Source: Octopus vulgaris | Taxonomy: Eukaryota | DNA length: 64,000 nucleotides | Direction of reading: 5' to 3' | NCBI GenBank assembly: GCA_951406725.2 | Contig: OX597837.1 | Location: 37,696,001 to 37,760,000, forward strand | Part shown: one piece after another, positions 13,273-56,549 of the stretch | How positions within the stretch are numbered: the stretch's first letter is position 1 | Layout: every line of letters starts with the position of its first letter | Made by a program: the position numbers and the translations under genes | The notes under the pieces: model-generated | What the model was told of the DNA's origin: nothing | Seen by the model: only the letters and a program-made list of their open reading frames with translations | The model's database searches: none

Positions 13273-13322
<50 letters not shown>

Positions 13323-13458: not shown

Positions 13459-13556
13459 GTTGAATTTTCTGCTGCTTTAAATAAAGCATATTACTCTACC
13501 ACTGGTATTTGAGTACTCTTTTTTTCCACCTTGTTTCACATTTATGTGTTTACTCC

Positions 13557-20720: not shown

Positions 20721-20738
20721 GTAGACGGATAAACATAC

Positions 20739-20858: not shown

Positions 20859-21549
20859 CTAAGATGAAACAAATAACAATCTACTATAATAACACTCGGG
20901 TGTTTTTCTCCGTCACAACATATGAATGAGAAAGGAAGGGGGTGATAGATGAATAAGGAAGGAAGGAAGGAAGGAGGGAAGGGGTGATGGCAAACTGGTG
21001 GTGGGAGCGTTTCAACTCTGTGTGAGTATGTGTGTGTATGTAAAAGGGAGGTCTATGAAGGAATGTGTGTGTGTAAGTGTGTGTGCGTGCAATGGAAGTG
21101 GGATGGTGAACATTCAATGCTGAAAAGAAAAATCAAACAGCGTTTCAACTCTGTGTCAGTATATGTGTGTATGTGTGTGTGTGTACAAGGAAGTATGTGA
21201 ATGTTTGTATGTGTGATTATTGCGTAACTTATATAAATATAAAATACTATGATTAGCCATCATTTTTGATGGCACAGAGCCAGCTAGTAATAATGATAAT
21301 AATAATAATAATCCTTTCTATAGTAGTGACAGGGCCAGCAATTTCTGGGTAGGGAATAAGTTGATAACATAGGCCCTAGGATGCAATTGGTACTTATTTT
21401 ATTGACCATGGACGGATGAAAGGTGAAGTTGACCCTGGTGGAATTTGAACTTCAGAACACAAAGATAGCTGAAATTTGCTAAGCATTTTGCCTAGCATGC
21501 TAATGATTCTACCAGCTCACCATAATAATAATAATAATAACAACAACAA

Positions 21550-21912
21550 CAAGAGCACTCAGAGAGTGCAAACCTCTGCCAAGGGAACACCAAGGTCCTC
21601 TCAATGATTAACTAGAGATAATTTTTAGAATGAGAATTTCTGAAATAAACTCGACTTCTCTCACAAACGAGAATACTAAAAATGAACCCGACCGCTCTCA
21701 AAAATTAAGTAAAAAAATAGGAAAAATAATCCAGAATCCTTGTCTGGTACTGGATCGATCCCCAAATCTAATCAGTTTGTGTCAGTCACGAGGCCAAACA
21801 TCCTTGAAAGTTTCATCCGAATTCTTCAAGCGGTTCTTGAGATATCTTGTACATGGACAATCTAACAAACACGATTGACAACAATACCTCTGCTTTTGCT
21901 CAGGCAGAAGTA
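21550..21912 (+). mobile_element. Possible Helentron/HINE-like non-autonomous element
   Basis: Inserted in an (AAC)n tract; subterminal ACCTCTGCC and 3' stem-loop TACCTCTGC...GCAGAAGTA. Confidence 0.4.
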
Positions 21913-22881
21913 CCAATCCTTTCTTCTATAGACACACGGTTTGAAATTTGGGGGAGGGGGATAGTCGATCACATTGGCCCAGTACATGACTGGTACTTAT
22001 TTTATAGACCCCAAAAGGCAAAGTCGATCTTGGCAGAATTTGAACTCAGAATGTAAAGACAGATGAAATACTGCTAAGCATTTTGCGCGGCATGCTAACA
22101 ATTCTGCCAGCTCACTGCCTTAATAATATTAGTAATGGTCTCAAATTTTACCACAAGGGCATCAAATTTGGGGGAGGGGATGAGTCGATTACATTGACCC
22201 TAGTGTTCAACCGGTACTTATTCTATTGACCCCAAAAGAATGAAAGGTAAACTTGACCTCGGTGAAATTTGAACTCAGAACAGAGCGATGGGCAAAATAC
22301 TGCTAAGCATTCCGTCTTGCATGCTAATGATTCTTATTTCTTTATTACCCACAAGGGGTTAAACATACAGGGGACAAACATCAACCCCAGTGTGTAACTG
22401 GTACTTAATTTCTTGACTCTGAAAGGATGAAAGGCAAAGTCGACCTCGCTGGAATTTGAACTCAGAGCATAAAGACAGACGAAATACTGCTAAGCATTTT
22501 GCCCAGCATGCTAACGTTTCTTATTTCTTTATTGCCCACAAGGGGCTAAACATAGAGGAGACAAACAAGGACAGACAAAAGGATTAAGTCGCTTACATCG
22601 ACCCCAGTGTGTAACTGGTACTTAATCTATCAACCCCGAAAGGATGAAAGGCAAAGTCAACCTCAGTGGAATTTGAACTCAGAACGTAATGGCAGACAAA
22701 ATACAGCTAAAAAAATATAAGGACACAGATCATGTCATATAGCCAGCTGGAGACAATGTCTCCTGGGGCTAAATAACAGCAACGTTCGTCCTAAACCAGG
22801 ACTGCCATGTTATGTTGGCAAACAATCTTTACTTAAAAAAAAAAGCATTAACAGAAAAAAATGAGCTCTGCTCGTTTATAC

Positions 22882-23013
22882 CTGACGTGATCAGAACCAG
22901 TTCCAAAACTCTCTTCTCCACAAAGAGACAAACGGCCGGCATCCATGAGGTTACCAAAGAATTTCCAACCAGTTGGAACCTCAAAGAATTCTTTCTTTTT
23001 AGCGTGAGCAACT
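22882..23013 (-). CDS. PGM1: Phosphoglucomutase exon 6 (VAHAKK...[14 protein letters not shown]...[13 protein letters not shown])
   Basis: Acceptor TTTTTCCACAG, donor GTATAA; GEESFG motif. Confidence 0.93.
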
Positions 23014-24809
23014 CTGTGGAAAAACGGAGATGTTTTAAGTAATTCCTCGCATTACAGAATTGTGCTAATTACTTAATTGCATTAATTAACAATATTTGGC
23101 ACAAATTAACAATTAAAATCAATTGAGATGCAGCTACAAGCCTACCCATCATCATCATCATCATCATTTAGCATCCGCTTTCCATGCTAGCATGGGTTGG
23201 ACGGTTCAACTGGGGTCTGGGAAGCCAGAAGGCTGCACCAGGCCCAGTCTGATCTGGCAGTGTTTCTACGGCTGAATGCCCTTCCTAACGCCAACCACTC
23301 CATGAGTGTAGTGGGTGCTTTTTATGTGCCAGACGGAGCTGGCAAACGGCCATGGTCGGATGGTGCTTCTTATGTGCCACCGGCACAGTGGCCAGGCGAG
23401 GCTGGAAACGACCACGATCAGATGGTGCTTTTTACGTGCCATTCCAGATGTGACCTTCCAGCCTTTTAGTTAGTGTCCCCTCCATACTGATATTTACAAG
23501 CAAACTCACCTCCACCCTTTTCCACTTCTCACTACATCTGCCTCTAGCCCTGTCTCTACCCGTCTGTCACCCTCCACCCATAATCTTATGAAATTACCCA
23601 CCGTCTCCTCCCCTCCTGATCCACATTCTGTGTTTCCTCTTACACTTACTTTCTTGTACTTTGAGGGTTCGCTCTGGTACCCTGTCACCACCACCTTTAT
23701 TTTCCTCCCAGCTACTCTCATCCACCCTTGCATAATACAGGGTAGCCACGTATTTCTTCTATAACAAGACACCAGGGCTTGTCTCCTCTCAACACTCTCA
23801 CCCTCCAGCCCCTCATAAAATCTTGCAAACCCACCCACTGATACTCACTTTGTGCTTTGAAGGGGTCACTTGGACACTTTGTCTCTACTACAGATCCCTT
23901 TACAGCTCCAATCGATCATTCTCTCCCCCCTCCCCTACTGAATGTGAGTGGCCATGCAGCTCCCCTTACACTATGTGAGTGACCGACCTGCTTTGCTACC
24001 CCTTCCACTACTTCTCTCATAATTTAACCCTTACATGGTGACCTCAATAGAGCCAGTGTCACAACTCCGTCTCCAAAAAAGCCACAACATTCTGTAAAGT
24101 GGTTGGCATTAGGGAAGGGCGTTCGGTCATAGAAACCATGCTGGAGCAGATAATGGAGCACAATGCGGTCCTTCGACCCACTGGGTCCTGTTAAACTGCC
24201 CAACCCTTGCCAGTATGGAGCAAAAAAGTGATAACGACGATGGTGATGATGATGATGATGATAATGACTATGATGTATTATGATGATGAAGATGATGACG
24301 ATGTTGATGATGGCGATAATGATGAGGATGCTATTGATGGTGGTGGTGATGGTGATGACGATGACTACGATGTATTATGATGATGATGATGGTGGTGATG
24401 ATGATGCTGACAGCAACTACAACGATGATTACGATGATGACAATTATGATGACGACGATAATGATGATGATGAGGATGCTACTGATGGTGATGATGATGA
24501 TGATGATGATGATGTTGATGATAGTGGTGATGATAGTGATAATGATGGTGGTGGTGGTAATGATGATGATGGAGGTGGTGGTGATGATGCTGATGATGAT
24601 GGTGATGGTTGTGATGACGATGATGATGACGGTGGTGGTTTGGGCAGATACACACCATGTGTTTGCTGTCAAAACATTTGTCAACCAGCAAAATGTGGTG
24701 GGAAGTTAATTTTTTCCAACATGTCATGCAAAATAAGGAGCGATTCTATGAAGCGAATCCAGTGAGGTGTGCCCTTAGCCCCTCCCCCCTTTGCCCCTCC
24801 TCCCTCTCA

Positions 24810-25136
<327 letters not shown>

Positions 25137-26012
25137 GTGGTGCCACAGCATGGCCACAGCTCGTGAGCTGAAACTAGATGAAAAATAATAATAATAATAA
25201 TAATAATAATCCTTTCTACTACTGGCACAAGGCCTGAAATTTCATGCGGGGGAGATAGTTGATTGCATTGACCCCAGTACTCAACTGGTACTTATTCTAT
25301 TGACCTCATAAGAATGAAAGGCAAAGTCGACCTTGGTGGAATTTGAACTCATAACACAGTAGCAGACGAAATACCGTTAAGCATTTCGCTCAGTGTGCTA
25401 ACGATTCTGCCAACTTGCCACCTTTAATAATAATAATAATTTCAAATTTTTGCCACAGAGGCAACTTGGGGGAGGTGGGGATGAGTTGATTGCATTGACC
25501 CCAGTGTTCAACTGGTACTTATCTTATCGACCCCGAAAAGATGAAAGGCAAAGTAACAACATGGCAACAATTTGAACTCAGTATAGTAGCGAACCGAACG
25601 AACATACCACTAAGCATAGTCATAGCGTGACAACGATTCTGCCAGTTCGCCACCTTAATAATGATAATGATGACGATAATAATAATAATCATCATCATCA
25701 TCATCATTTAGCATCCGTTTTCCATGCTAGCGTGGGTTGGACGGTTCTACTGGGGTCTGTGAAGCCAGAAGGCTTCATCAGGCCCAGTCAAATCTGGCAG
25801 TGTTTCTACGGCTGGATGCCAATAATAATAATAATAATAATAACAACAATAATAATAATAGTATAGTAACAACAACAACAATAATAATAGTATAGTAACA
25901 ACAACAACAACAACAATAATAGTATAGTGACAACAACAACAACAATAATAATAATAAAAAAGCCTGAAGAAAATTCTAGCTGGGCCCCACCTGCAAGGTC
26001 ATGCGCTGTTTA

Positions 26013-26396
26013 TCTCTCTATATATAAACGGCAGTTTGTCTGTGCGTGTTTCTGTGTGTCTGTTTTCTTGTACCTTCACCCTGACCACGGCTTTCAACCG
26101 ATTCTGATGAAACTTGACACACACATAGCCCAATGTCATAATTCAAAACTAACGCAGCGAAAATTTTGAAAAGTTCCCCCAGTTCTGAAAAAAATCGATA
26201 AATTCGACATGGGGTCGAGAATCAGAAACACAAATTGCAAACTGTCTAGGGGACGCAACTCCACCTTTTTTAACTAAAAAAAAAAATTTACCATAATTTT
26301 TTTCCATCTTTTTGCTGTTTTTTGGCTATAACTCTCTAAAAATGCTTTATAGTTATTTCCCTTACAAACCTGAGCAACGCCGGGCGATACTGCTAG
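26013..26396 (+). mobile_element. Non-autonomous Helitron nested in a SINE-like repeat
   Basis: TC...CCTGAGCAACGCCGGG...CTAG inserted at TTTA|TCTTGATA; the empty-site sequence is visible at ~4961. Confidence 0.82.
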
Positions 26397-26634
26397 TCTT
26401 GATATAAGGTCACCATGTCGTGCACGTATTGTTGTGACACATGTTCCTGGTGTACCCTTATCAGACAGGTATTCATGATGGGTATATTAAGGCTTTGTAT
26501 ATTTGTACCCCAATGTCACTTTGATGGCATGCATTGCTCTCTCACTCAATAATAATTTTGGCATTAACATGTGGTGCCAAAATGTGTGGCATTTTTATAA
26601 ATGAAAAAAAACAAATAAACGGCAAAAGACTTAC

Positions 26635-26825
26635 ACCGTCCCCATCAAACGCTGCACCAAATCCATGTTTTCCTTTCTTGAGTTCCTTGACGAGGTTAGC
26701 AGCGTAGGTTAAATTGGGATCAGGATGAAGGCCTCCAAAATCAGGCAAGATATTGCTATTCACACAGCTCTTTGGATCAACTCCGAGTTCATCACAGAAT
26801 ATTTTCTTTACATACGGTCCGGTGA
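26635..26825 (-). CDS. PGM1: Phosphoglucomutase exon 4 (VTGPYV...HPDPNLTYA...AFDGDG)
   Basis: Acceptor TTGTTGCAG, donor GTAAG; [11 protein letters not shown] and FDGDG motifs. Confidence 0.95.
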
Positions 26826-27102
26826 CTGCAACAAAAGCAAGAAATAAAGGTTTGCGTTTGATCTAAACCCACCCCGAATCTTTCCCTATAAAACAACCAG
26901 AATAAAAACTTGAAGCAGATTTTTCTTATTTTTTAAAGTAGGTGGCAGAATATTTGATGGGGATGGGGGAGAAATAAAGGTGGGAGTATATTAGAGACAT
27001 AATACTAGTCAACCAAATTCTGGCTAAAAAAAAAAAAAAAAGGAATAAAAAGCAAAAATAATGAACATGAACAAAAACTGATAACCAAAATGTGATTCTT
27101 AC

Positions 27103-27375
27103 CTCCGTGCATGGAGTCCAGAAGAATCTCCAACTTTGGACATCCGTCACCTTTTAAGAGTTTCTTGATGGAGTCGAAGTCAAATAATTCCTTCATATAA
27201 GAGACGTAATCAGCCACGGAATCAATGATTTCGACGACCATCTCGTGGCCACCAATTTTGAATTTACTGGAACCCATCTTTGAGAGATCCAATGCCAATT
27301 TCGGGCAGGTTTTATAGGTCTTGATATTCTTGGACATTTCAAATATTGCGTTTGTGACGCCTTCAGGAGCAGGAC
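27103..27375 (-). CDS. PGM1: Phosphoglucomutase exon 3 (GPAPEGVT...DSMHG)
   Basis: Acceptor ATACTAG, donor GTAAG; frame consistent with the neighbouring exons. Confidence 0.93.
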
Positions 27376-27435
27376 CTAGTATGGAAGTACAACAGAAAAA
27401 AAATGTGAGAATCTATGTATGTACATATGCATGCA

Positions 27436-27468
<33 letters not shown>

Positions 27469-28292
27469 TCACCCCCTCCCCACATATATATACATGTCTG
27501 TATAGATATGGAGACCCCTTCAGTCACGAATGACCATGAGATTGCACCTAGAAAGTTACCCTCTGAGGCACAAGTCCAGGCAAGGTTGTTTTTATGGAAG
27601 ACCAGCAGTCACCCATGCATACAAGCCTCTCTTCTCTGCACCACTGATGTTATCCAAGGGAGAGACAAAGGGGCCAATACAGCTTGGCACCAGTGACATC
27701 ACAACTCATTTCTACAGCTGAGTGAACTGGAGCAACGTGAAATAAAGTATCTTGCTCAAGAACACAACACGTAGCTTGGTCCAGGATTCGAACATACAAC
27801 CTGATGGTCATAAGTTCGATGTTCTAACCAATGAGCCATGTGCCTTCTGTATGGATATATATATATCATCACCATCATTTAATGTCTGCCTTCCATGCTA
27901 GCATGGGTGGAATGGCTTCACAAGAGCCAGCCAGGAAGAAACCTGTACCAGACTTCTGTAACTGTTTTGGCAGTTGGATGCCCTTCCTAACACCAACCAC
28001 TCAGCAGAGTGGACTTAGTGCTTTTTACGTGGCACAAGCACAGGCAAGGTTCAGCTTCTAAGCTGAAGGGAAGGCAGCATGTTCTTTGTCTATCTCAGTT
28101 ACCTTCTTGGAGATTTTAGGTAAAATTATACTAATGTGTCCATCTGTTTTAATTTAATTAAATTATATGTCTTTATGCAGCTGAGGACTGCTCTGCATTT
28201 TAATTGATGTAATGATTGCATTGTTCAATTAAATGGAGTTGCTTGAGAAGAGTGTACTGCACATATGATAGGCTTCTTTCAGTTTCTGCCTA

Positions 28293-28565
<273 letters not shown>

Positions 28566-28680
28566 TTAAACAAAAATAAAAAAGAACTAACGAGGCGCAG
28601 ACGTGATTAAGAAGTTTGCTGTCCAACCATGTGGCCTTGGGTTCCTGTTCAACTGAGTGTCACCTTGGGCAAGAGGCTTC

Positions 28681-28999
28681 GGATCTTTTCCTTTTGAACG
28701 GCAGTTTTCAACACAATTTCTAGTTAACTAAACACTTTTAAACTTCGTATACTGGTAGAATGTATCAAAATAAAACATTTTTTTCGCTTGGCTTTCTTGA
28801 GAAAATTGTAATTTGTAAGTTTAACGTAGTTTAATTTTTCGAATTTTAATCAATCGATGGCCTCTATTGAGCTAAAATCATTTGCTGCGTCTAAAACTGA
28901 GACAATATCCTGTCAGTAACCCTAACCCTAATACGAAGTTTAAAAGTGTTTAGTTAACTAGAAATTGTGTTGAAAACTGCCGTTCAAAAGGAAAAGTCC
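28681..28999. mobile_element. MITE with GG...CC termini and 8-bp TSD GAGGCTTC
   Basis: Long TIRs; TSD on both flanks; inserted into a SINE. Confidence 0.85.
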
Positions 29000-29299
29000 G
29001 AGGCTTCAGCTATAGCCTCGGGTTGACCAAAACCTCGTTAATGGTTTTGGTAGACGGAAACTGAAAGAAGCCCATCGAGCGCGCACGCATACACTTACAA
29101 ACATAGGTTAATGTTTTGCATCTTGACTCGGAAATGAAACTCCAAAAAATATACTGGAATGGGTGCAAAACAATGTGTAGGAAACGAATATGAAAAAAAA
29201 AAAAAAAAAAAAAGAATGCGCGCAAAGCAATGGGAGGGTGGAGAGAGGGCTTCGGAAAATTTACAAGATCCAAGCTTTTTTTCGTTTGTAACCTTTAGG

Positions 29300-29724
29300 G
29301 GCAATCTTTCGTCTCTAGTAGACCTTTCCGTCGATTTCCGTAAAAAATTTTTTTTTATATATGGGCTTGCGGGAACTTTTGAAGTAATGAGAGCGAAAGA
29401 GACTAAGAGAAAGCGATTGTATGACGAAGGAAGTTCTTTTGAAGTTACCGTTCATGGGGAGCATTGATGTACATGTGTGTGTGTGTGTGTGTGTTTGATG
29501 GGGTGTGGGAGACAGACAGTATGTTGTGTAAGTGAAGTGCTTCTGTTAGTGTGTGTGAAGAGACAGAGTAATGTGTGAAAGAAAGAGATAACTGAAATTT
29601 TTTACTCGGTGTATGTGTATATGTATGTATATTACTTCAAAAGTTCCCGCAAGCCCATATGTAAAAAAAAAAAAAAAATTTTACGGAAATCGACGGAAAG
29701 GTCTACTAGAGACGAAAGATCGCC
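29300..29724. mobile_element. MITE with ~90-bp TIRs and 8-bp TSD CCTTTAGG
   Basis: GGCAATCTTTCGTCTCTAGTAGACC...GGTCTACTAGAGACGAAAGATCGCC; nested in an older hairpin element (~29284-29900). Confidence 0.85.
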
Positions 29725-32700
29725 CCTTTAGGAAAATGGGGGGTTTTTTTTAAATGAAATTTTATAGAAATACCTTTCTATAAAGTCCTCTCGATAAAGA
29801 TTTTCCCCAGCATTTTCTTTATAATCGTAATATGCTGTTTGAAAGGTATTTCTGTAAAATTCCATTGAAAATAAATCCCATTTTCCTAAAAGTTCCAAAC
29901 ATTTATATGTGTCTTTATACCTGTTTCCCCACCTCCATCACCGCTCGATAACCGCTGCTGGTTTGTTTACGTCCCCGTATCTTGGCGGCTCTGTAAAATT
30001 GGCCAACAGAATAAGTACCAAGCTTAAAACAAATAAATATTAGGGTCGATCCGTTCGACTAAAACCCCTTCAAGGCTGTGCCCCCATATGGTCGCAGTCC
30101 AATGACTGCCACAAGTGAAATGCAAAAACTGGGAGATAAAACAAAGTCGGAAGATTGGGATGGGGCCAGGCTCGTGTAGGCATGCGGGACCTATTCTTGG
30201 TAGGACGAAAAGAAAAGGGCCCACATCACGTTTTAAACACCGGTTTTCGTCTGATCAACGATGTGGAGCAATGTGGAGCTTTTAATGCTTAAAAACGGGA
30301 GACATCGATCGATAATATTTATTTCTAATACTGTCTTCACCACGCTTGTTAAATACATTTCATAAAATAAGGGACATCTTAAACTCGAGGGACATAAAAA
30401 GTACAAAATTGATAATCAAAGAGAAACGAAGCCGGTAATATACAAAAATAGACGTGGCTAGCAGGAGTAAAGCGAAACGAACGAGTTAATGTTTATGAAT
30501 AAATTATTAAACGTTATTTTTAGACTTCAGTTATCATTTCTCAACGGCAACATTTAATAGCTTTTTGAATAGGAAAGTAGCACAATATGATAACTGCAAC
30601 CCAATTTAATAACCTTGATTTGCATTGTGTGCATTCAGCCGCAAGCATGCGCCCACACACACTAAGTTTCTTTGTCCCAAATTTCCGACACCATTGACAA
30701 TACCAAAACACATACCCACCCACCAACCTCTTGAGCATATTATAAGTTCAAGCATGTATGCACATATATGTTTATACACACATACACACCACATGCACAT
30801 CACCTGTGTGTGTGTGTGTATGTGGTTCAAATTTACAGAAAACAAACGACGAAGACAGGTGAGGGAACAACAAGCAGGTGTATTAGTTTAACGCTTGGGG
30901 GAAAATGGAAATGTCTTTGATGCTTCGAGCCTATGCTCTTCTTCTGTAAGAATTGAAAGGGGAAAAATGTGTAGGGATGACACACACGCCAAAGCCCTGT
31001 GAGTGGATTTGGCAGATTGAAACTGAAAGAAGCCCATTGTATATATATTTGTGTGTGTTTGTCCCCACCACCGCTTGAAAATAGGCGTTGGCTTTTTTAC
31101 ATTCCTGTAACTTAGTGGTTCAGCAAAAAAAACTGGGATCTTTTCGGTTTGAACGGCAGTTTTTTCTAGCTGTGTCATATGAAATTGTCACCCATAATTA
31201 TGACCCTAGTATCAATCTATTGCATTTCAATCTGTTTTAGGGTTAGGGGTGGGGGGAAGGGTATCTTTTTTTCTTCAGAAATGTAAATAAACTCAATCTG
31301 TTTCTTAAACGAGGGACAGAATGTTGCTTACCTCAATAGACACCATTGATTGGTTGAAATTGAAGAAAAAAAGCAACAAATATCTTACAAAGTATAGAAT
31401 TTTCTGAATAAAGCCAAGAGAAAAAGATGTTTTATAAACACATTCTACAAGTATACGAAGTTTAAAAGTAATTAGTTACCTAGAAATTATGTTAAAAACT
31501 GCCGTTCAAACCGAAAAGATCCAAATATAAGTACCAGACTTGAAAAAAAAAAGTTCTGGCAGCCAATTTGTTTCACGACACCCTTCAAAGCAGTGCTCCA
31601 GCATGGCTGCAGTCTAATAACTAAAACAAGCAAGGAATATATTCCATCGGGTGACAAGTTCAAAGAGGCTATGAGTGGTCACTTGGAATAAAGAATTCAA
31701 AGACAGGTCTGAGAGTGAATAAAAATAACAAATCCACATTTATTAGATCCTCAAAATATATTTTGTTTCACCTGGGCCATGGGTGAACAAAATATATTTT
31801 GTTGAACTAATGGTATAGAAAATCTGCCTCAAAACACTCCATTTGATGCATGCGAGCATGGAAAAGTGATGTTGAAATGATGATGATGAGGAGGAGGCAG
31901 AGGATAATGGTTATGGAATAAACGTTCATTCCCTTTCAGATCTATCTTGGAGTTCTTTATTCTCAGTGACCAAACAAGTGAATATGCACGGCTTAGTGGT
32001 TAGGGGGTTGCAATCACAAGGGCAATATCATGGTTTCAATTTCTGGATTGGACTAAGGTGGTGAGCTGGCAAAAACGTTAGCACGCTTGGTGTAATGCTT
32101 CACGGTATTTCGTCTGCTGTTACGTTCTGAGTTCAAATTCCGCCAAGGTCGACTTAGCCTTTCATCCTTTCGGGGTTGATTAAATAAGTACCAGTTATGC
32201 ACTGGGGTCGATATAATCAACTTAATCCGTGTGTCTGTCCTTGTTTGTCCTCTCAGTGTTTAGCCCCTTGTGGGCAGTAAAGAAATAGGCATTTCATCTG
32301 CCGTTACATTCTGAGTTCAAATTAAGTATCAGTTGCACACTGGGGGTCAATGTAATCAACTTAATCCCTTTGTCTGTCCTTGTTTGTCCCCTCTATGTTT
32401 AGCCCCTTGTGGGCAATAAAGAAATAAATGTTAGCATGTCGGGCGAGATGCTTAGTGGTATTTCGTCTGTCTTTAAATTCTGAGTTCAAATTCCACCAAG
32501 GTCAACTTAGCTTTTCATCCTTTCAAGGTCAATAAATTAAGTACCAGTAATGCGCTGGGGATCGATCTAATCGACTGGCCATTTCCCCCAAAATTTTGGG
32601 CCTTGTACCTAGAGTAGAAAAAATTTCTGGACTGGATTGGGCTGTGTTGTGTCCTTGGGCAAAACACTTCATTTCAGTTAGCTAGGATGTATTGATTTCG

Positions 32701-32948
32701 GTCACATATTTGCCACGGAACCAAACTGGTCCTATGAGTCCTAAGACCAAGATACAGCAACATCCCTACATAGCTTCTTTGAACTTGTCACTCCTGGAAA
32801 ATTATCTGTTTTCACCAACCACTTATTGACTGGTTCCTTCAAAACTAGCCCTCCCCCCTCAGATGAAGGGTCTTATCTTAAAAGTTATTTGATGACACAG
32901 TTCTATATTTATCTTAGGAATGAGAACCCAGGTTTGAAATTTCTGCAA

Positions 32949-32994
32949 GACACCTGATGAAGACTGGAGGGTATATCAGCCGAAACGTTGTGTT
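32949..32994 (+). ncRNA. Minimal hammerhead motif (tRNA-SINE-associated family)
   Basis: GACAC-CUGAUGA-A-GACUG[GAGGGUAUAU]CAGCC-GAA-ACGU-U^GUGUU; palindromic ACGU stem III. Confidence 0.7.
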
Positions 32995-33758
32995 AACAAC
33001 AAACAAGATGAGGACAAATATCCGTCAAATGTAAATAATATAAATAATTTGCTTGATGACCTTACTAGGGCTGGTGCACTCTGTAATGTAGTTTAGCATT
33101 AGGAAGGGCATTCTGCCACAGAAAATGCACCTTAGCAAATTCTGTTTAATCCATGCGGGGGATTAAACAGAAATAACTCAAGGTGGCCAGTAGAATAGAT
33201 ACAAGCAATGAAAATTAATAAATTTGCTTTAAATACTTGATTTGTTGAAATTATTTTCCCCTTTCAGGGAAGACTAAACAAATGTCTAGAGGCAATTGCA
33301 ATCAACTTCCAATGAGAAGGGGAGATAATCCTGAGAATAAAAAAAACATTATCTAAAATTAACATGCTTAAGAAAAAGAGAGTTTGATTGCTTTTGATTG
33401 GAAAGAAGAGGACATGTTTCTACTCCAATAGACATCATTAGCACATCAAGTGTCCTACATTGGAGAATGAGATTCTTGAGATTATCTCCCCTTCTCCTCA
33501 TGTATTGTTTTAACCCTTTATCTGTCCGGTGCGTCACATCTATGAAGGCGCATGGCTGAGTGGTTAGGGTATTTGGCTTGTGATTGTAAAGTCACGAGTT
33601 CAATTCCTGGTGATTCGTTGTGTCCTTGAGCAAGACACTTTATTTTACATTGCCCCAGTCCACATACATAATATACACATACAAATGAGTGTATATACCC
33701 ACTCTTGTATGGGTGTACCTCCTCTGATTTTCATATTTAATTTAGTTTGTTCTTCATA

Positions 33759-33885
33759 ATCTCTGAAGAGGCCTTGGGATATTTTTGTAAGTGTCTCATC
33801 TATAACTACATATTAACCTATCACACATGGCTAATATGAGCATAATGAGGCACCCATATCTGCATGGCTGAAACAGCTGTAAGAT
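33759..33885 (+). ncRNA. Hammerhead motif with ~90-nt stem II insert
   Basis: AUCU-CUGAAGA-GGCC...GGCU-GAA-ACAGCUGU-A^AGAU. All core nucleotides intact; perfectly palindromic stem III. Confidence 0.72.
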
Positions 33886-34801
33886 GTAGTTTATATTTAT
33901 ATTTATTTATATTTACTTATACATACTGTACTTATTGTATCTTATTACTCATTGATGTACATTGTTTTGTTCTATATTATTATGTTTGACCTTAATGTTC
34001 ATATGTAGTGGTTTAATAAATTATGTGATTGGGTATTATCTGGTAGTTGATTATTGATTTAGATGTATTTCTCCATTTCCTTATTTTGTATATATATATA
34101 TATATGACGGGCTTCTTTCAGTTTCCATCTACCAAATCAACTCATAAGGCTTTAGTTGGACCGAGGCTATAGAAGACACTTGCCCAAGGTGCCACACAGT
34201 GGAACTGAACCCGGAACCGTGTGGTTGGTAAGCAAGCTTCTTATCACACAGCCATGCCACACCTGCACCAAAGCCATCTTAAACTGTCTCTTCTAACAGA
34301 ACTGCCTGACCCATTGCCTGTCTTGTGGTTCACATAATTCCCTGGTGTCCATGCATCGTAGACATTCCCAGTTTTCTTTCATCCACCAGAGTGATTTGGG
34401 ACTCATGAAAGGGAAGATTTATAATACTCAGGACATATGAAACAAGGGCCAACTATAAGTCTGAAAGCAAACATGGACTTCTCGGACAAATTTATGATCA
34501 TGCCAGCATGGAAAACAGACGTTAAAATGATGATGCTGATGATGATGTTATATATATAAAGAAAGAAAAGGGAGAATTAGCTGGATGTATAAATTTTAAT
34601 TTATTTGTTTCAGTAATTTGACTGTGGCCACGCTGGAGCACCACCTTCAGTTGAACAACTCGACCCCAGGACTGATTCTTTGTAAGCCTAGTACTTATTT
34701 CGCTGGCATCTTTGGCCAAACTGTTAAGTTACGGGGTTGTAAACACACTAACATTGGTTGTCAAGCGATGGTGGTGGTGGGGGACAAACACACACACATA
34801 A

Positions 34802-34848
<47 letters not shown>

Positions 34849-35924
34849 GCTTCTTTCAGTTTCTGTCTACCAAATCCACTCACTAGGCTTTGATTGGCCC
34901 AAAGCCATAGTAAAATACACTTGCCCAAGGTGCCACACAGTGGGACTGAACCTGGAACCATGTAGTTGGGAAGCAAGCTTCTTACCACACAGCCACGCTT
35001 ATAAATGTTTTCCATTCTCTTGGTATAAGTCCAAGTATGTAAGACACCAGCTGTGCTGATGACACGCATTAGGGTAGAAACGTGCAACGACAGTTGTCCA
35101 TTTTTATCTCCAATTACATTGCATTTTCCTTAACGGCATAACAGTGTGGGAGAATTTGGGATTGCTGAGATTATCTCCCCTTCTCATCTGGAATTGGTTA
35201 AAATTACAAGACACATAGATATTTATACACACACACATAGATATATACACACACATGCATATATACACATACATGCATATATATATATATATATATTTAT
35301 ACATATACACGCACATATATATACTCTTTACTCTTTCACTTGTTTCAGTCATTTGACTGTGGCCATGCTGGAGCACCGCCTTTAGTCGAAGAAATCGACC
35401 CCCCAGGACTTATTCTTTGTAAGCCTAGTACTTATTCTATCGGTGTCTTTTGCTGAACCGCTAAGTTACGGGACGTAAACACACCAGCATCGATTGTCAA
35501 GCGACGTTGGGGGACAAACACACTCACATATATACGACGAGCTTCTTTCAGTTTCCGTCTACCAAATCCACTCACAAGGCTTTGGTCGGCCTGGGACTAT
35601 AACAGAAGACACTTGCCTAAGGTGTCACGCAGTGGGACTGAACACAGAACCATGTGGTTGGCAAGCAAGCTACTTACCACATAGCCATTCCTATATATAT
35701 ATATGTATAAAATTTAAAGGACTGACCACTATAAGTGGACAGTCAATATGCTAGATATAGACGTCAAAATCGCTATTTACCACGCTGTTATCTAGCATAT
35801 TGACTGTCCACTTTTAGTGGTCAGTCCTTTAAATTTGTATTTAAAAAATATTTTAATCTTTGGATTTTTTTAATATGCTAGGCCACTGGTTTTAATTGAT
35901 TAATATCAATTTCTACCCTTATTC

Positions 35925-35966
<42 letters not shown>

Positions 35967-37802
35967 CAACACATGATGCAGCACGGATTTTTGTCAGTGA
36001 ACAGGTCGCGGTCTAATAGCGACGAAAATATTTTGGCAAATTAAATTTAAATGTTGAAGTGAATCTAACGGTTTTTGGGTGTTGCTTAAATGGCTTATAA
36101 ACACCTTCCACGCTGCAAATGCTTTCGTTCCAGCACACGATCTCAGATCAGGTTACTTGCTATGCAAGTACATCGCTGTAATATATATATATATATATAT
36201 ACACATACACACTTGCATACACACATATGTACATACACGCATGCATACACACACATAAGTACACACATATTTACAGCCATTTATTCAAAGACCACCAAAT
36301 ATATTTGAAGTAGTAAAATGTAAACAAACAATCGCTAATAATCGGCAAGTGGCCCACAATGAGAGCGAAATTGAAAATTCCTGGTGTGAATAGGGCTTCA
36401 TATTTTAGCATCCAAATCTCCCCTTTAAATAGTATCAAATTAAAAATAAAAGGAACTACACTTTAGATACGGTTTTCTTGATTACATTCTGAAATATATA
36501 TATACAGGATAACCAAAACTGGATTGCCTCTAATCATAGGTCTACTGGGTCACGCAATGGCCTAGGGTTAAACAACATTGTCAAAATGGTGGATCGGTAT
36601 GTGGACGCTCGAATGCTAGACATAGCAGTTAAATCTTCAGATGCTGCTAAAAGTACAGTGTGGTCAAAAATGGGACGAAGGCAAAGAATATGCACACTCG
36701 GGTTGGGGTTAGGGTTAGGGTTTAGGGTCAGGGTTAGTTTTAGGATTAGGGTTACGCCGAAAACGGGTGGCGCCCGAATATGGAATGTCTTTGATCATAA
36801 GTGTGCTTGATCAGGATTGACCAAGGGCTAAACAGCGACTTCGATCATGTTAAATCATTGGACAACAGGGAGCCTTCTACGTGGTCATCTGAAGTGGTTG
36901 AAATAACAGCCAAATTCCATTTAAATTTCGCTTTATCGTCACATAAATAAATAAATAAATAAATAAATATAAGGACACATTGAATAATGTAGTCCTAGAT
37001 ACACATACGCTATAGTTGAATAAGAGGTGAGAAGGTCATAACTGAAGCGCCTTTCATCATAGGTCGGGGTAATCAGAGAACCGTCTTTGAGGAGGAATTT
37101 GTTAAACACGAACTACTACTACTACTACTACAGTTGTAAATAACTGTTAGGATGGTCACGGTGGGAACACATCTTTGATCATTGGTCTAAGAACAATTAA
37201 ATGCAGTCAAGTTAACAAGGGAACCTGTATGAGGACACTCGAGAGGCTAGAAATGGCAGCCAAAAATCGTCTTATGTCACAGTTAAAGGACATGTAACTT
37301 GAAGAATTCGGTCGTGCATTCTTTTGCTTGCATATAGGGAAATTATATGAGGTAGTCACATCTGGATTGTCTCTGATTGTAGTTTTGCTGCTATCGGAGA
37401 CGACCGAGATATAAATAACATTTAAAAACCGCACACACACAGACACACCCGCATATATATACATACATAAACACACGCACACATATGTATATACATGCAT
37501 ACACAGAGATGATTTATGCACACACACACACATCTATCTATCTATCTGTCTATCTACCTACCTACCTACCTACCTATCTATCTATCTATCTCTCTCTCTA
37601 TCTATCTATCTCTCTCTCTATCTATCTATCTCTATCTATCTATCTGTCTGTCTATCTATCTATCTACTTAATGATTAGGGTTCAGCAAAGATTTGCCTAA
37701 CCACATACCGAAGTTTAGAAATAGCAGCCAAAAAACGTTAGGGACTCCCTTTAAAAAGGGATTACTTCTTAATTAATTAATTTCACCCTCTGTTATTATT
37801 GT

Positions 37803-37852
<50 letters not shown>

Positions 37853-37907
37853 ATTTAATAAATAAAACATATATACATACATATATGTACATACCTACAT
37901 CTATATG

Positions 37908-37940
<33 letters not shown>

Positions 37941-38138
37941 ATATATACATACATACGTGTGTGAAACTGTGAACGTATGTGCAATATTATATATGTAAGT
38001 GTGACACACAGACACACACACATATATATATATATAATATGCACGTACAATAATGTGAGCGTGTCTCTGTTACATGTAATATACACGTCTAATATACAGT
38101 ATATAATATACAATAGATATACGTTGGTGTATACATAC

Positions 38139-38384
38139 ATCGTTGGCAGCACACATCTGGACGATCTTGAGGACAGCTTCTTTGACATAATATCGTCCAT
38201 CACCTCCAATGACCAGGGTGCAGTTTTTCAGTTTATCCCCCAGGGCCGCGGTCAGCATCGACTGTATAAAGTTCTCCGTGTAGTTCTCTTCCATATACAC
38301 CTTCACAGGTTTGCGGAGGCCGCTTGTTCCCGGTTTTTGACCGTCATACGGCTTGGTGATCACTGTTGAAACCTCCAGGGCCAT
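38139..38384 (-). CDS. PGM1: Phosphoglucomutase exon 1 (MALEVSTV...CAAND)
   Basis: ATG at 38384; PYDGQKPGTSGLRK and GGDGRYY motifs; donor GTATGT at 38138. Confidence 0.95.
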
Positions 38385-39609
38385 GTTGGGCTATTTCTGT
38401 GGTTTTTGAGGTGGCGGGGTTTTTTTAATGGTCTCTCTTGGAGTTTAGAGTCCCGACTTGTAGCTTGTGGTGTGGAGTGGAAGTATGTAAGCTTGGCTGG
38501 GAATTAGAACCGAAGAAAATGGAAATGAAACAAACCAAAAATAATGCTGATCTGAAGGAATTGGTAGAATCTTAACGGCCTTAATTCGACGCCGTTTCTG
38601 CGTTTTTTGGATGGAATTAAAGAGAGAGGAAGAAAGAAAGAGAGGAAAGTCTGCGACAGAAACAGACAAATTCCTTCTCGGTCGGTAGCGTGATAGATTC
38701 AGTTGAGATCTATCTATCTATCTATCTATGTATATATATATATATATATTTATGCGTGTGTGTGTGTAGATATATATATGTGTATATATATAGGTTAAGG
38801 TATGTATAAAATTGCTGTTATGACACTGTATAAGAAGGATAGAGAGAGGGGGAAGTGAGAGTAATAGCGAGAAAGCGAGGGCGGAGGAAGGAGGAAGAGG
38901 CAGAGGGAGAAATATGTAAGAAAGGAAGGATAGGCAGAGAGAGAGAGTGTACGCTTAATGGAGAGAGTGTCTGAGAGAGAGAGAGAGAGAGAGAGAAAAA
39001 CAAAGACAGGAAGAGACACAGAGAGAGAGAGAGAGTATGAGAGTAAACGAGAGAGAGAGGAGGAGGGAGGCAGAGGCAGAGGCAGGCGTGCTCTTATTAC
39101 CAACAATAGAAAGCGATCGACGGCGATGACGACCTTGAACCTAAACTCTCAAGGACGGTCACGCACGCACCCCCCTCCCTCATACGCACGCACGCGCACG
39201 TTAACATGGTTATTAAAGAATGTGTGTGTGTGTGTTTAGATGTGTAAATATATATTTGTATATATAAACGTTGTTGGAAGTTTGTTTAGATATGATAATT
39301 ATTAATAATTGTTAGGTTCAGTCAATGTCTGTTTTTAAATAGAAAAGGAGGTTCCCAGATTTTATTGTGTGCGTGTGCGCGCGTGTGTTCGTGTGAATCT
39401 TTACCTCCTTATCTGTCTCTCTGTGTGCTTTGTCTGTCTGTCTGCCTACCTGTCTGTCTGCCTACCTGTCCCTCTGCCTACCTGTCTGTCTGCCTACCTG
39501 TCTGTCTGTCTCCCTGGCTCTATCTTTCTATCTATCTATGTGTCGCGTTGCTCTCATGCAACTATGCCGTCCGGAGTCGACCTTGAGTGACTTCAACACA
39601 ACCAAAGCA

Positions 39610-40034: not shown

Positions 40035-40054
40035 CCAAAGCATTCTATAGGGGA

Positions 40055-40915
40055 TTAGTGGAGGGGACGACTTTCAGGCCAGGGCCCATGGACAACTTCC
40101 AGAGATCCCTGGTCTGACAGTGCTACCAAGAAGCGCTACCCGGTTCTACAGACACGGTTCAAGAAACACGGGGCCGACCTGCCCGAGATGCGGTCAGAGC
40201 GACATATCCGTTCTGCACGCACTCGTGCAGTATCCAACAATTTCCAACCTGTGGGCTTATGTCGAACGACTGCTGTCACGTGTGGGACGAGTCGGTTTAT
40301 CAGCTGAGTCTATCGTCAATATTGTCACGCCTCCTTCCTTCAAACGGGAAGGAAGAGCTATTTTTATCATCCTTGTGGCTATGGCGAAAGAATGTATCTG
40401 GTGGACGCGTCTGAAAGGATTGGAGACAAACACTTCCTCTCTGGTCAATCTCTCATCAACTTCTTCAAGTACCACTTGAAAAGGAAAGTGAGAGTAGAGA
40501 GGCAAGTTTTGTCTAGCGAATGTTTCAAAAAAGATGGGTGAATGTAGCAAGGATGGCACATATGAATGACGAAGCCACCGTGAGCATAATCCTATGAACC
40601 TGGAAAAATTTAAAACAGAGGGTTACCTACTTGCAAACAAATGTGGTAACATGTAACATTATTGACCGAGGTTACTGTGGTCTTTTCCGTAGGCTTTTCT
40701 TTCCACAGATAAACCTTATCTGTTTCCCCTTTTACACTTTACATCATGACATTTCTGTGATACACAATCACTATTGATCGTTTTTTTTCTTTCCCTTTTA
40801 CGATCCCTTTTGATCGAAAACCTACCCAACTTTTTTTTTCTCTCCCCAAAAAGAAAAGCTCTACTTTGTAATCTGTCCCGTCTGTGTGCAGCCCTGTATG
40901 GCTAATAAAGAAACA
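40055..40915 (+). mobile_element. Tx1/L1-like LINE 3' fragment
   Basis: CPRCGQSDISVLHALVQYP zinc-knuckle remnant, AKECIWW motif, 3' UTR ending AATAAAGAAAC followed by (TATC)n. Confidence 0.7.
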
Positions 40916-49669: not shown

Positions 49670-50160
49670 GAATGTCAGTGGCTCAGTCGTGGTGAAGAGT
49701 TAGCCAGAAGTGGCCTGCATCCAAGAAGGATTCTTCTGAGTGTATGGTGGGATATGCGTGGAATAATTTATCATGAACTGTTAGATGATATTCCAACAAC
49801 AACAGCCAATATTTACTACCAACAGCTAACACATTTGGAAGAAGCTTCGCAGCAAAAGCATCCACCATTAACAAACAAAACAGGAGTCATCCTTCACCAT
49901 GATAATGCTTCACCTCACACTGCACAAAAGACCTAAGATATCTTTGAAAAATATGCCTGGAAAATTATGCATCACCAACCATATTCTCTGGACCTAACAT
50001 CTACAGATTATCCTCTCTTTAGAAGATTACAATTCCATTTGAGTGGATTAAGCCTTATTTCAAGAGCAATGAAATGATTTTCTTTTTCACTTTTAAACCT
50101 AAGGAATTTTATGATCTTGGAATTAAAAAGCTCATTGGCAGATGGAAAGGGACCGTGGAG
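49670..50160 (+). mobile_element. Mariner (DD34D) transposase remnant
   Basis: LHPRRILLSVWWD...HHDNASPH...QPYSLDLTSTDY with 34 residues between the last two Asp; contains stops. Confidence 0.85.
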
Positions 50161-50337
50161 AAGAATTTTACTTGAACAAATTAACCCCAGTACTTACTTT
50201 TTAAAGTCTGGTACTAATTTTATTGGTTTCTTTTGTTGAACTGCTAAGTGATGGGGATGTAAACAAACCAACACTGGTTGTCAACCGGTGGTAATGGACA
50301 AACACACAGACACACACACACACACACACACTCACGC

Positions 50338-50844: not shown

Positions 50845-52270
<1,426 letters not shown>

Positions 52271-52369: not shown

Positions 52370-53020
52370 AAATCACTATTGTTTTCAACCGAGGGCCTCC
52401 AGATGACTTCAGAATCTCCTGCAACTCTTCTGGACGGTCTCCTTGTTTAAGTTGGTGAATGCTGCCATAATCCTTGCCTTCAGTTCATCTTTGGTATTAC
52501 AAGTTTTGTTGGTCTCTTGCTCAACTGCACCCCACACATAATAATCAAGGGGGTTACTGTCTGGGGAGTTAGGTGGTCAGATGTTAGGGGTGATGTGGTC
52601 GTAGAAATTGTCTGACAACCATGACTGGGTTCTCCTGCTTTTGTGGCATGGTGCAGAGTCCTGTTACCAGACATAGGATCTTCCAGCAGCCACCTTCTTA
52701 ACCCAGGGCAGCACTACCTCCTCCAGGCACTTGATGTAGGTGTCTGTGTTGAGTCAGAGGCCTTGTGGGAAGATGAATAGAAGCATAACGTTGCCATCAT
52801 TTGTGATCACTCAAAACACTATGATGTTGACTGGATGTTTGATTTTTATCACTCTCAGTACATGTCCTCTGACTGCACTGTTCTCATATCGACACCCAAA
52901 CACTTCCAAATTTTTGGCAGAGTGAACTGTGTCATGGTGCTGTTTTCCTCACAAAATAAAAACAAACAATGCATGAAATTAAGAATATAAAATGGTGACA
53001 ATTTACCCATCCCAGCCTCT
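52370..53020 (-). mobile_element. maT-type (DD37D) Tc1/mariner remnant
   Basis: YVW*QDSAPCH...I*PPNSPDSNPLDYYVWG with 37 residues between the last two Asp. Confidence 0.8.
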
Positions 53021-53023: not shown

Positions 53024-53985
53024 TATTGGGTCATCCCATAAATAATGTGGGTTTTTTTTTACACTTCTTTTAATTTTCAAAATTGAGTAAAACAAAGTTC
53101 TTTTTAAATTTAGAATATACTCTCCTTGATTTTCAACGATGCTCTTCCATTTATCTGGTAGACTTGCAATCCCCCACCACACTCTTCCAAAATTCGTTTG
53201 TCCGTGATGAAAAATACTCCTCCAGTACTTTTCTCATTTCATCTACAGAATTCATATTTCTACTGTCCAAATAATTTTGAAGACTGTGGAATAAATGATA
53301 ATCAAATGAGGCAATGTCCAGTGAATATAGTGGGTGGGGCATCGTTTCCCATTCAAACTGCTCCAGCCTTTGGAATGTCATCCTTGCTGTATGTGGCTGA
53401 GCATTATCCTGATGGAAGAAAACCTTTCATCTTGAAACCAAAGAGGGTCATTTTTCTTCTAGTGCTGACTTAAGCCACTCAAGCTGCTCACAGTAGATCT
53501 GCTTTGTTATTGTTTGGTTTGGGTTTAAAAGTTCAAACTGGACTAAACCTTTCATTTCCTACCAAACAGATAACAACACCTTCTTTAGCCTGGAGTACCA
53601 GTGTTTCTTCCAGGATGAAGCTTGTCTTCTAGGCTGTAGTTTCCAGTTTGGAATTTCTGGAACCCCCATTGACACTGGCTTACACTTATTGTCCAATCCC
53701 CATATACTGCATTAATATTCCTCACACTTTCCATTGTGATGTTGCCTTTATTGAACTCATAAAAGCAAAATATGCCGAATATGTTCCTTTGTCACTTCCA
53801 TTATAGCTTTGAAAAAATAACTGTTAAAATCGAACTGCACTCTTCAAAATTTGCACTAAGAATAAGGACAAGGTAAAATTACCACCTGTTTTTATAGCAA
53901 GTTGATGCAAGTAGTTTATCCTGTCCCCATCTGACTTTTATTTCATACAATTGAAAAATTTGCATTATTTATAGGAAGACCCAAT
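53024..53985 (-). mobile_element. Internally deleted mariner element with both TIRs
   Basis: TATTGGGTCATCCCATAAATAATG / CATTATTTATAGGAAGACCCAATA termini; HPLYSLDIASFDYHLFHSLQNYL motif. Confidence 0.85.
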
Positions 53986-53992: not shown

Positions 53993-54050
<58 letters not shown>

Positions 54051-54302
54051 AAATGAGAAAATGAAGAAACATACACCTAAATCAATCATCAACCATCAGA
54101 TAATACCCAATCAATACTTTATTAAACCATTACATAACAGCAATGACATTATACATAATATATTGCAAATATAACTAGACATGGAAATAGAAATAGAAAA
54201 TACAATTACATCATATCTGACAGCTGTTTCGGCCGTGAAGACAGGTATGTCTCATTTAACCTATTAGCCTATTAGCCATATATTGAATAAAAGATCTTTT
54301 AT

Positions 54303-54342
<40 letters not shown>

Positions 54343-54396
54343 ATAAAAGATCTTTTATTCAATATATTCTGCACAATGATTCATAGTAATTATTCC

Positions 54397-54458
<62 letters not shown>

Positions 54459-54816
54459 TTATTAAACTTTCACTTTTATTATACTATGGAAGACCATAGA
54501 GAATAAAATGTATGACTTAAAGGTTTGGTTGCTGTTTAGTTACATATTTAGGAGTTGGTTATTGATTTACTTATTGAATTTATTTACAGATAATGTTGAT
54601 CATATGGTAAATGTGTTTGAAAGTTGTGGTTTCTTTGGTATGTTTGTTCCCAAACAACACTTATTTTAGTGCTGTTGACACCATCGGATTGAATGGTACT
54701 GCCCAGGTGTCGAAACCATAATGATATCTGTGGGGCAGCTGATGATGGACATATGTTGGATTGTTGGTATGGCTGTTTTTTGTACATGTGGAATAGTGTT
54801 ATAACACATCCTTCTG

Positions 54817-54853
<37 letters not shown>

Positions 54854-54856
<3 letters not shown>

Positions 54857-55123
54857 CCTTGCTGCAAGGGACTATATATTGGTGAAACAAGGAATGCATT
54901 ATTGGAACGCTCATGAGTCCACAGAAAACAAGTCCAGAACACTAATTTTTGCCAAATTCCATTGCGCAAACATATTGAAAAATATGATCAGAAAATGTTT
55001 CTAATTTTTCTTTCCCACAAGCTACAAGACACAAGTGAGGTTGGAGGAAAGATAAACATTTTTATTAAAATGTTCAAACCTGTTTTGAATGGAAATAACA
55101 ACAATAGTATAACAACCAGTTAA
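54854..55123 (+). pseudogene. Penelope-like element GIY-YIG endonuclease remnant (C-terminal half)
   Basis: One frame reads VPCCKGLYIGETRNALLERS*VHRKQ...LRKHI...FIKMFKPVLN with a single internal TGA; the 5' part is replaced by (TA)n. Confidence 0.7.
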
Positions 55124-55762
55124 TGATGTGGATTAGAAAATATCTTTAACATACGAATATAAACAAATTACAGAAGACTCCCACTGATTGAAACCAAGTT
55201 TGCTCACTCATAAAACCATTACATGTAAACCGCAAGCTAATTGGTTAAAACAGAGGTAGGGTATATGCCAGTAATATCAGTACATCCGACAAACTGTGAT
55301 GTTTAAGCTGCATGCAAATTGGTCAAAACCATATTCCAAAAACTCAGCTTGTTGGAACCAAGAGGTATAAAAAGGAAGAAGTCAGTGATTTTACTACAGT
55401 TGTCAAAAACTCAATTGTCTGTTAAATACATTTTGAAATCTGATGATTACTATAAAACATATGAAAACATTAATTGAACTTTATGAACATTACAAAATAT
55501 TTTTTTTAATGTTTAACACACTTCAGCCTTGTAAAAAAATTGTTTTTTTTAAAATACCATAATAAAAAACGTGAAAACCAGACCATATTGTAACTTTATT
55601 CATCTGATATATAATTCTATATATATTTACACAAATTTGGGAAAAAAAATTATATATATATATAGTTACTCCAAACATGAACAAAGAGAAAACACAACAA
55701 TGCAAGGACATGGAACAAGTATAGTGTTATTGGACACTCAGGAAAGGAAAGAAAGAAGGAGG

Positions 55763-55797
55763 ATTTAACGTTTCGAGTGGAGCTCTTCATCAGAAGC
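55763..55797 (-). ncRNA. Minimal hammerhead motif
   Basis: GCUU-CUGAUGA-A-GAG[CUCCA]CUC-GAA-ACGU-U^AAAU, inside a ~210-bp element flanked by (TA)n. Confidence 0.6.
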
Positions 55798-55873
55798 ATA
55801 GAAAAAGGAAAGGTCCAAGGAAGAGAAGACAGAGAAAAAAATCGCCAACGATGCACACGCAGTCACATATTGA

Positions 55874-55905
<32 letters not shown>

Positions 55906-56069
55906 ATAAATATATCAAACAATTTGATTCATTAATTCCAATGTTGAAGACTAGCATCATGCTTGAAACTCAGAGTACCAAAGAATTAGAATCAAACTGT
56001 TTTGTTCCATTCATGTAACTCCCAATAAATGGGTTGAGTGCACTTCTTTCATTTGCTTGCTTACTCATA

Positions 56070-56101
<32 letters not shown>

Positions 56102-56549
56102 GGCAAATAGAAAATTAAAAGTAACAAAAAATAACAAAAGTCAAAAGGATGTAGACATGGAATATATTAGGTTGGTGCTGAGTAAAAGTGGTAAAAACAG
56201 TAGGTGGATAATATTTTACGCCGTGACTCTTTGTCAGAAAGAGGAGAGACAAATGGTCCAGAGAAGGTAAAAACTTATATCTTGTGTGTATGTGTGTGTA
56301 TGTGTGTGTATGTGTGTGCGTGCATATACATATGCAGGCATGAATGGATTGATGGATGGACAGATAGATAGTTATTCAAATTTCTCAAATTATAACAAAT
56401 TGTAGTATGAACAATTGTATTTAGATTGTGACTGCAATTTGAACCCACATCCATAAAATTTGACAGAACCACTTGATTGAATTGTAATCAGTTGATATGA
56501 TGGCGACGGAGGAAAATGGCATAAGGTAACAATAAAAAGAAATAGCTAT

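Follow-up and report, generated by a model that had tools for sequence, protein, structure and literature searches.

We analysed a stretch of 64,000 nt from the Octopus vulgaris genome (contig OX597837.1 of GCA_951406725.2, positions 37,696,001 to 37,760,000, forward strand), which we call the window, and all the coordinates below are positions within it. The locus of interest is a stretch of 2.3 kb that is cut by ten TA, TG or CA tracts; 75 TA tracts were found in the window. It contains the 3' end of a Naiad element, belonging to the Penelope-like elements (PLEs), a decayed fragment of a GIY-YIG endonuclease (EN) with its probable 3' flank, and three hammerhead-related repeats on the opposite strand (Table 1). 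PLEs are known in octopus and are still active there, with 336 recent insertions from 31 families in O. vulgaris (PMC13282606).

The rest of the window is rich in microsatellites and includes phosphoglucomutase exons (~18900-38390, minus strand) with matches to PGM_PMM I, II and III. An intronless ORF of 331 aa at 8153-9148 (+) is hydrophobic and GPCR-like by eye, with no Pfam match at E 0.001, and an inverted duplication of ~280 nt with matching translations on opposite strands was detected at 51251-51934. Five further open frames (49686-50200, 52412-52900, 53154-53470, 17581-18003 and 40051-40479) resemble Tc1/mariner transposases and LINE C-termini by eye, and are presumably fragments of such elements; none of them had a Pfam match at E 0.001.

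Table 1. Features of the 2.3 kb locus, with positions in the window
Feature	Position	Strand	Basis or remark
Dispersed repeat with half hammerhead (54215-54234, cleavage block and GAAA present), core missing	54050..54305	-	
Naiad PLE 3' terminus, ~360 nt, 5'-truncated, between (TG)24 and (TA)17	54457..54819	+	Matches the Naiad_Obim consensus end (PMC8557442 File S5) by eye
Non-circularly permuted hammerhead candidate	54640..54756	+	Descriptor match, folding, by-eye Naiad comparison
P0 of the candidate	5' 54640-54649 / 3' 54747-54756	+	
Hairpin Px of the candidate	54653-54676	+	8/9 pairs
Stem II of the candidate	5' strand 54677-54682 / 3' strand 54706-54711	+	6 bp
I-helix of the candidate	54685-54689/54726-54730	+	5/5 pairs
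Stem III of the candidate	54693-54697/54715-54719	+	5 bp
GUA cleavage site of the candidate	cut predicted after A54698	+	Sequence
Stem I of the candidate	54699-54704/54733-54738	+	6 bp
GAA and CUGAUGA of the candidate	GAA at 54712; CUGAUGA 54739-54745	+	
(TA)17 between Naiad end and EN fragment, likely a shared insertion target	54820..54853	.	(TA)n preference listed for octopus Naiad and Hydra families
Decayed GIY-YIG EN fragment, 5'-truncated, C-terminal-EN PLE type	54854..55126	+	Motif; by-eye comparison with PMC8557442 Fig. S2
Probable 3' flank of the EN element, with bare CUGAUGA..GAAA core (55440-55466), stems unsupported	55127..55650	+	
Short repeat between (TA)n tracts, with minimal type I hammerhead (core 55793)	55665..55872	-	
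Degenerate hammerhead-like remnant, mutated core near 56237, no GAAA	56102..56270	-	

The Naiad end was overlooked in the initial annotation of this DNA, though it lies directly upstream of the EN fragment. Compared with the final 237 nt of the Naiad_Obim consensus, it shows 16 mismatches and one gap (~93% identity, counted by eye), and self-comparison revealed no second copy of it in the window. An inverted RT-thumb fragment had been considered for 54460-54819 and was dropped once the Naiad 3' UTR had been recognised on the plus strand. Cephalopod Naiads have been reported as long inactive (PMC8557442). The same study describes Naiads as being without canonical hammerheads, with only cores or half-cores marked (Naiad_Ovul carries the label 'HHR_half_core'), and, as Naiads thrive without hammerheads, it raises the possibility that hammerheads are mere parasites of PLEs.

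Within this Naiad end we identified a candidate hammerhead whose parts are scrambled; it may be the ribozyme supposedly missing from Naiads. Its parts follow one another as the stem II 5' strand, the stem III 3' strand with the GUA, a stem I strand, one linker base, the stem II 3' strand, the GAA, the stem III 5' strand, the other stem I strand and CUGAUGA. All the hammerhead core bases are present, and the stem II strand is detached from CUGAUGA. Positions such as A9 and 10.1 are given in standard hammerhead numbering, and the cleavage triplet is described by the NUH rule. A9 is not joined to stem II here; Eckert et al. 2023 (PMC10085705) had assumed that no such arrangement exists. The block order S-G-C and the presence of an I-helix agree with type SGC; in that type, block C is unbroken and the stem II strand comes right after CUGANGA, whereas here the strand lies upstream and P0 takes up the bases that follow the core. 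The candidate would work like an SGC hammerhead, yet it is not classed as one.

A descriptor for this split order had one match in the window, with 6, 6 and 5 bp in stems II, I and III. None of 400 block shuffles gave a match as strong and 15 of the 400 gave any match at 4/4/4, a result that is post hoc because the descriptor was written after the site had been seen. When the loop and the arms were held open, the constrained fold recovered a scaffold of P0, Px, I-helix and stem III at -13.2 kcal/mol, to which the two crossing duplexes add -8.1 and -11.5. The unconstrained nested minimum-energy fold (-31.4 kcal/mol) is a rival, inactive shape that buries the strands of stems II and III. Nested folding, a method that cannot score crossing stems, showed none of the hammerheads of the locus (z-scores from -1.3 to +1.5).

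We then examined the Naiad sequences in the supplement of PMC8557442, where four core words were searched and the Naiad matches judged by eye; cores split by line breaks were missed by this search. File S5 comprises 54 Naiads, and many records showed no core near the 3' end. The core words occurred in 62 places of the Naiad file (19 CTGATGA, 16 CTGACGA, 9 CTGAGGA and 18 CTGAAGA), and 24 of these were judged to be core sites near 3' ends, while the other 38, located in ORFs or 5' regions or being duplicates, were set aside. By eye, 18 out of the 24 core sites were non-circular with compensatory stems: 11 had the split layout, 6 corresponded to type CSG and one to type SGC; no layout was assigned to the remaining 6. 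In particular, the split layout was found in Bfor, Amil, Aacu, Anas, Obim, Ovul and five further records, about 8 of the 11 being independent, and spans a ctenophore, cnidarians, cephalopods and the further records. The complete type CSG was found in the nematode copies Nbra-1, Nbra-2 and Nbra-3 and in three more records.

Compensatory letters were seen by eye in stems I, II and III across ~8 independent Naiads. In stem II, for example, GACACC/GGUGUC of octopus corresponds to GGCUCC/GGAGCC in Amil, so that the pairing is kept and the letters are changed. P0 and Px also recur by eye in other split-layout Naiads. The weak cases were the Beroe copy, whose stem I comprises just 2 bp, and two records with mismatches, Aacu and one other. 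Finally, in five Naiad 3' ends, probably from arthropods (File S5 parts 16-19), a local helix closes the core and a separate hairpin precedes the GAA, which is possibly another split layout.

The features and their pairing potential are what is observed at the candidate, and we infer its folding, cleavage and role as follows. The I-helix and stem III would form one long hairpin whose top loop presents the cleavage site and the GAAA. Its base would be flanked by two arms, one being the 5' strand of stem II and the other the stem I strand that carries CUGAUGA, and both would be held by P0 and Px. Docking of the loop on the base arms would then allow stems I and II to form, and the predicted cut after A54698 would fall ~120 nt from the end of the element. 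Such cleavage could trim tandem or read-through Naiad transcripts, a role already proposed for type I hammerheads in other PLEs. All three layouts (split, CSG and SGC) may be openings of one dumbbell, with the enzyme half closed by the I-helix and the substrate loop closed by stem III.

In several Naiad families the I-helix and stem III are nearly unbroken by eye, with linkers of 0-2 nt, and this tight geometry favours a dimer in which one pseudo-LTR copy docks on another. For PLE hammerheads, cleavage as dimers was reportedly described by Lunse in 2017. A monomer could act as well, since the same tight geometry has been noted in a few SGC ribozymes (PMC10085705). We tentatively propose, as an idea to which we give somewhat less than an even chance, that Naiad PLEs never lost their hammerheads and that many of these are non-circular, the first in eukaryotic genomes. 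The form found here would be opened between A9 and stem II into a rigid hairpin that hardly folds on itself. Cleavage would then require two pseudo-LTR copies, one offering its loop and the other the base on which this loop docks, and the RNA would act as a built-in sensor of tandem transcripts.

The scrambled parts in the Naiad 3' UTR could alternatively be a conserved structure without catalysis (e.g. a signal for RT binding or dimerisation) or a dead relic, a reading that we consider unlikely, though worth keeping in mind. The rival nested fold, the broken link between A9 and stem II and the many Naiad records without a core near the 3' end all fit it, as does the anole PLE, whose insertion in vitro did not need hammerhead cleavage (PMC11167929); by analogy, cleavage may be dispensable for insertion. 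Against it, the core letters and the NUH triplet are kept in exact register across phyla while the stems vary, and the copies from nematodes are of the complete CSG type, for which cleavage has been shown. Indeed, cleavage in vitro is known for both the SGC and the CSG non-circular hammerheads (PMC10085705).

If the permuted forms are active, as in the tentative proposal above, ribozymes are spread across the Naiad clade too and were overlooked because the descriptors assumed a circular order. The natural examples of type CSG would rise from 2 to at least 8, and animal genomes would contain non-circular RNA permutations, including a topology that was excluded when non-circular hammerheads were first searched for. 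Non-circular hammerheads had reportedly not been found before in eukaryotic genomes. No report of permuted hammerheads in Naiads was found among the titles, abstract beginnings and passages of the open-licence PMC and bioRxiv literature. One paper (PMC13725137) mentions hammerhead variants 'with additional helices', citing another reference, and the split topology may already be described elsewhere.

Downstream of the Naiad end, the EN fragment reads in the frame at 54854(+) just as the initial annotation had it, and indeed starts directly out of the (TA)n tract. Its YIG lies at 54875, a single TGA interrupts the frame at 54914 (codon 21) and two stops follow at 55121-55126. From the PLE endonuclease signature that had been claimed, we found YIG..R..H and I..P..LN, and also a second His, in the right order; however, the cysteines are adjacent (CC) and do not form the spaced pair C..C, and the GIY half has been lost by 5' truncation. 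Both His and the terminal Asn are kept, and there is no conserved catalytic Glu at the expected place in frame, which is compatible with decay. The copy is truncated at (TA)17 and comes without an RT.

The spacing from the YIG to the Arg and His agrees with the rows of Fig. S2 in PMC8557442. Compared by eye with the same alignment, the C-terminal segment is the short I-x4-P-x-LN, like the Nematis and Poseidon rows and unlike the longer YPxGLN of Naiad and Neptune. The stop directly after the Asn indicates a C-terminal EN. The Hydra clade was considered for the fragment and rejected, as that clade has no CCHH and has a CxxC before the Glu, while the fragment has two His and no such CxxC. Since no profile or database match was obtained, the PLE status and the clade of the fragment rest on the motif and on by-eye comparison; at the level of the motif, which is unique in the window and has the published spacing, the claim of a decayed PLE GIY-YIG endonuclease holds. 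We therefore regard 54854-55126 as very probably a decayed PLE endonuclease. No second copy of the EN element was detected in the window by self-comparison.

The initial annotation had also pointed to a weak hammerhead-like element at 55437-55470, where a pseudo-LTR would be expected. CUGAUGA (55440) and GAAA are present there. The stems, by contrast, are at chance level, with a relaxed type I score of 2.77 of 4 that was matched or beaten by 65% of core-keeping shuffles, so that the core is at best an unrecognisable remnant of a hammerhead and a pseudo-LTR hammerhead is unsupported. Self-comparison found no relative of 55127-55650 elsewhere in the window.

The cluster of hammerheads that had been reported at 54215, 55763 and ~56230 was recovered in part. 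At 55793-55764(-) lies a minimal type I hammerhead that is nearly intact and scores 3.35, with stem I as its weak part; at 54215 there is only a half hammerhead, and the core at ~56230 is mutated and has no GAAA. The 56102-56270 remnant resembles the 55793 element by eye, and blastn detected no similarity. The 54050-54305 repeat matches a second copy at ~33755-34089 (81% and 74%), and this copy, on the plus strand, still has a type I hammerhead, whose loop II measures ~95 nt. Perfect inverted arms of 28 nt around (TA)16 occupy 54278-54367, at the broken end of the same repeat. None of 54215, 55793 and ~56230 passed a strict type I descriptor, which in the window was passed only by 62174. No hammerhead was found among the 32 Rfam matches in 54040-56290 (E up to 10), nor was a hammerhead family among the best 150 of 182 Rfam matches over the whole window.

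Other hammerhead-like sequences were also observed. Three copies at 32954(+), 61891(-) and 62174(+) make up one family with a minimal type I hammerhead. At 13315-13490 a hammerhead repeat forms a head-to-head inverted pair with arms of ~85 nt and cores at 13385(-) and 13420(+), in which stems I and III are intact and stem II is weak. Further hammerhead-like cores lie at 35056, 47239 and 51585 (+), with relaxed scores of 3.1-3.55 of 4.

According to the initial annotation, the EN fossil was a candidate mobilising partner of these elements, i.e. an autonomous element mobilising its hammerhead neighbours and carrying its own pseudo-LTR hammerhead at 55437. PLEs as mobilisers and origin of animal retrozymes have already been argued for (bioRxiv 10.64898/2026.07.22.740005), and C-terminal-EN PLEs bear type I hammerheads in their pseudo-LTRs (PMC8557442). 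The bare core also lies on the same strand as the fossil, ~315 nt downstream, its CUGAUGA..GAAA pattern arises in only 372 of 20,000 shuffles of 55127-55650 (1.9%), and it has the ctgatgat..tgaa form seen in Hydra-clade rows. Against these points stand the chance-level stems of that core and the excess of hammerhead-like cores across the window (15 versus 6.0 +/- 2.4 expected), which also contains the 75 TA tracts. Moreover, in a blastn self-comparison neither the fossil nor its 3' flank shared sequence with any of the window's hammerhead families, the three neighbours are all on the minus strand and the fossil is on the plus strand, and (TA)n tracts lie between the pieces. With no common sequence, opposite strands and (TA)n separation, the partner role is unsupported, and we consider it improbable. 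A preference for (TA)n is listed for octopus Naiad and Hydra families, and such a shared taste would explain the cluster of hammerheads without any partner relationship.

That the translated motif arose by chance, with no endonuclease relic behind it, is very improbable, in spite of the database searches. In Pfam, the EN frame and 12 flanking frames gave no GIY-YIG or other relevant match (the best scores, Borrelia_orfA with E 0.012 and Peptidase_S9_N with E 0.009, were taken as noise). Two word-seeded protein database searches found neither longer nor near-length relatives of the fragment, a type of search that requires exact 5-mers, of which a decayed copy may have none, and two five-residue motifs had 0 matches in the supplement of PMC8557442. 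On the other side, the short motif Y[IV]G[EQKM]T-x3-[LFIV]-x2-R-x3-H, built on columns that are conserved in the PLE alignment of PMC8557442 (Fig. S2), had a single match (54875) in ~128,000 six-frame positions of the window. It is expected 0.0002 times per window and was found in 0 of 600 Markov-3 simulated windows. A longer pattern that adds the upstream Cys, the second His and I..P..LN also had one match in the window, in the same place, and thus further residues follow in the correct order.

Least probable of all is that the EN fragment belongs to the adjacent Naiad as the N-terminal EN of a tandem unit following a pseudo-LTR: the two pieces are on the same strand and 34 nt apart, and Naiads do form partial tandems and have N-terminal ENs (PMC8557442), but the 3' UTR is ~93% identical to Naiad_Obim while the EN has motif residues alone in common with the ENs of Naiad_Obim and Naiad_Ovul, its C-terminal segment is not of the Naiad type and its stops are immediate, whereas the Naiad_Obim EN continues into a long ORF. 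Assignment of the fragment to Naiad was likewise rejected when its clade was considered, as it does not run on into KR-rich, CxC and RT regions and does not match the octopus Naiad EN.

It is likely, to judge from the sequence, that the locus consists of independent retro-insertions piled into TA/TG microsatellites, namely a dead copy of a C-terminal-EN PLE and a Naiad_Obim 3' end bearing the non-circular candidate hammerhead. The region 54854-55650 would be a 5'-truncated, long-dead PLE copy, placed by target-primed reverse transcription and with no present function. The candidate Naiad ribozyme, which is well supported by sequence, outweighs this EN relic in importance; the fossil on its own is probably ordinary.

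With the C-terminal GIY-YIG ENs of PLEs (Nematis, Penelope/Poseidon and Neptune; CDD cd10442 as named in PMC8557442), the fragment shares the YIG-x-T-x3-L-x2-R-x3-H spacing, the second His, the terminal Asn and a stop soon after it. It differs from them in that the GIY and the linker are cut off, the Cys spacing is altered, the catalytic Glu is missing in frame, an internal stop is present and there is no RT. The repeats at 55793 and 54215 and the 32954/61891/62174 family are of the same kind as the type I hammerheads of PLE pseudo-LTRs and non-LTR retrozymes, with no link to the EN fossil, and most copies are decayed. Naiad_Obim and Naiad_Ovul share with 54457-54819 the 3' end and the (TA)n target; Craig et al. 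2021 (PMC8557442) resolved no hammerhead structure in them. Finally, the candidate shares with the type SGC and CSG hammerheads (Eckert et al. 2023, PMC10085705) the block order of site, GAAA and CUGAUGA, the short linker between stems I and II, the extra helix joining the other sides of these stems, the same core letters and an I-helix placed almost directly on stem III. It differs from those forms in that its stem II 5' strand has no direct connection to CUGAUGA and is placed upstream, with P0 and Px filling the gap.
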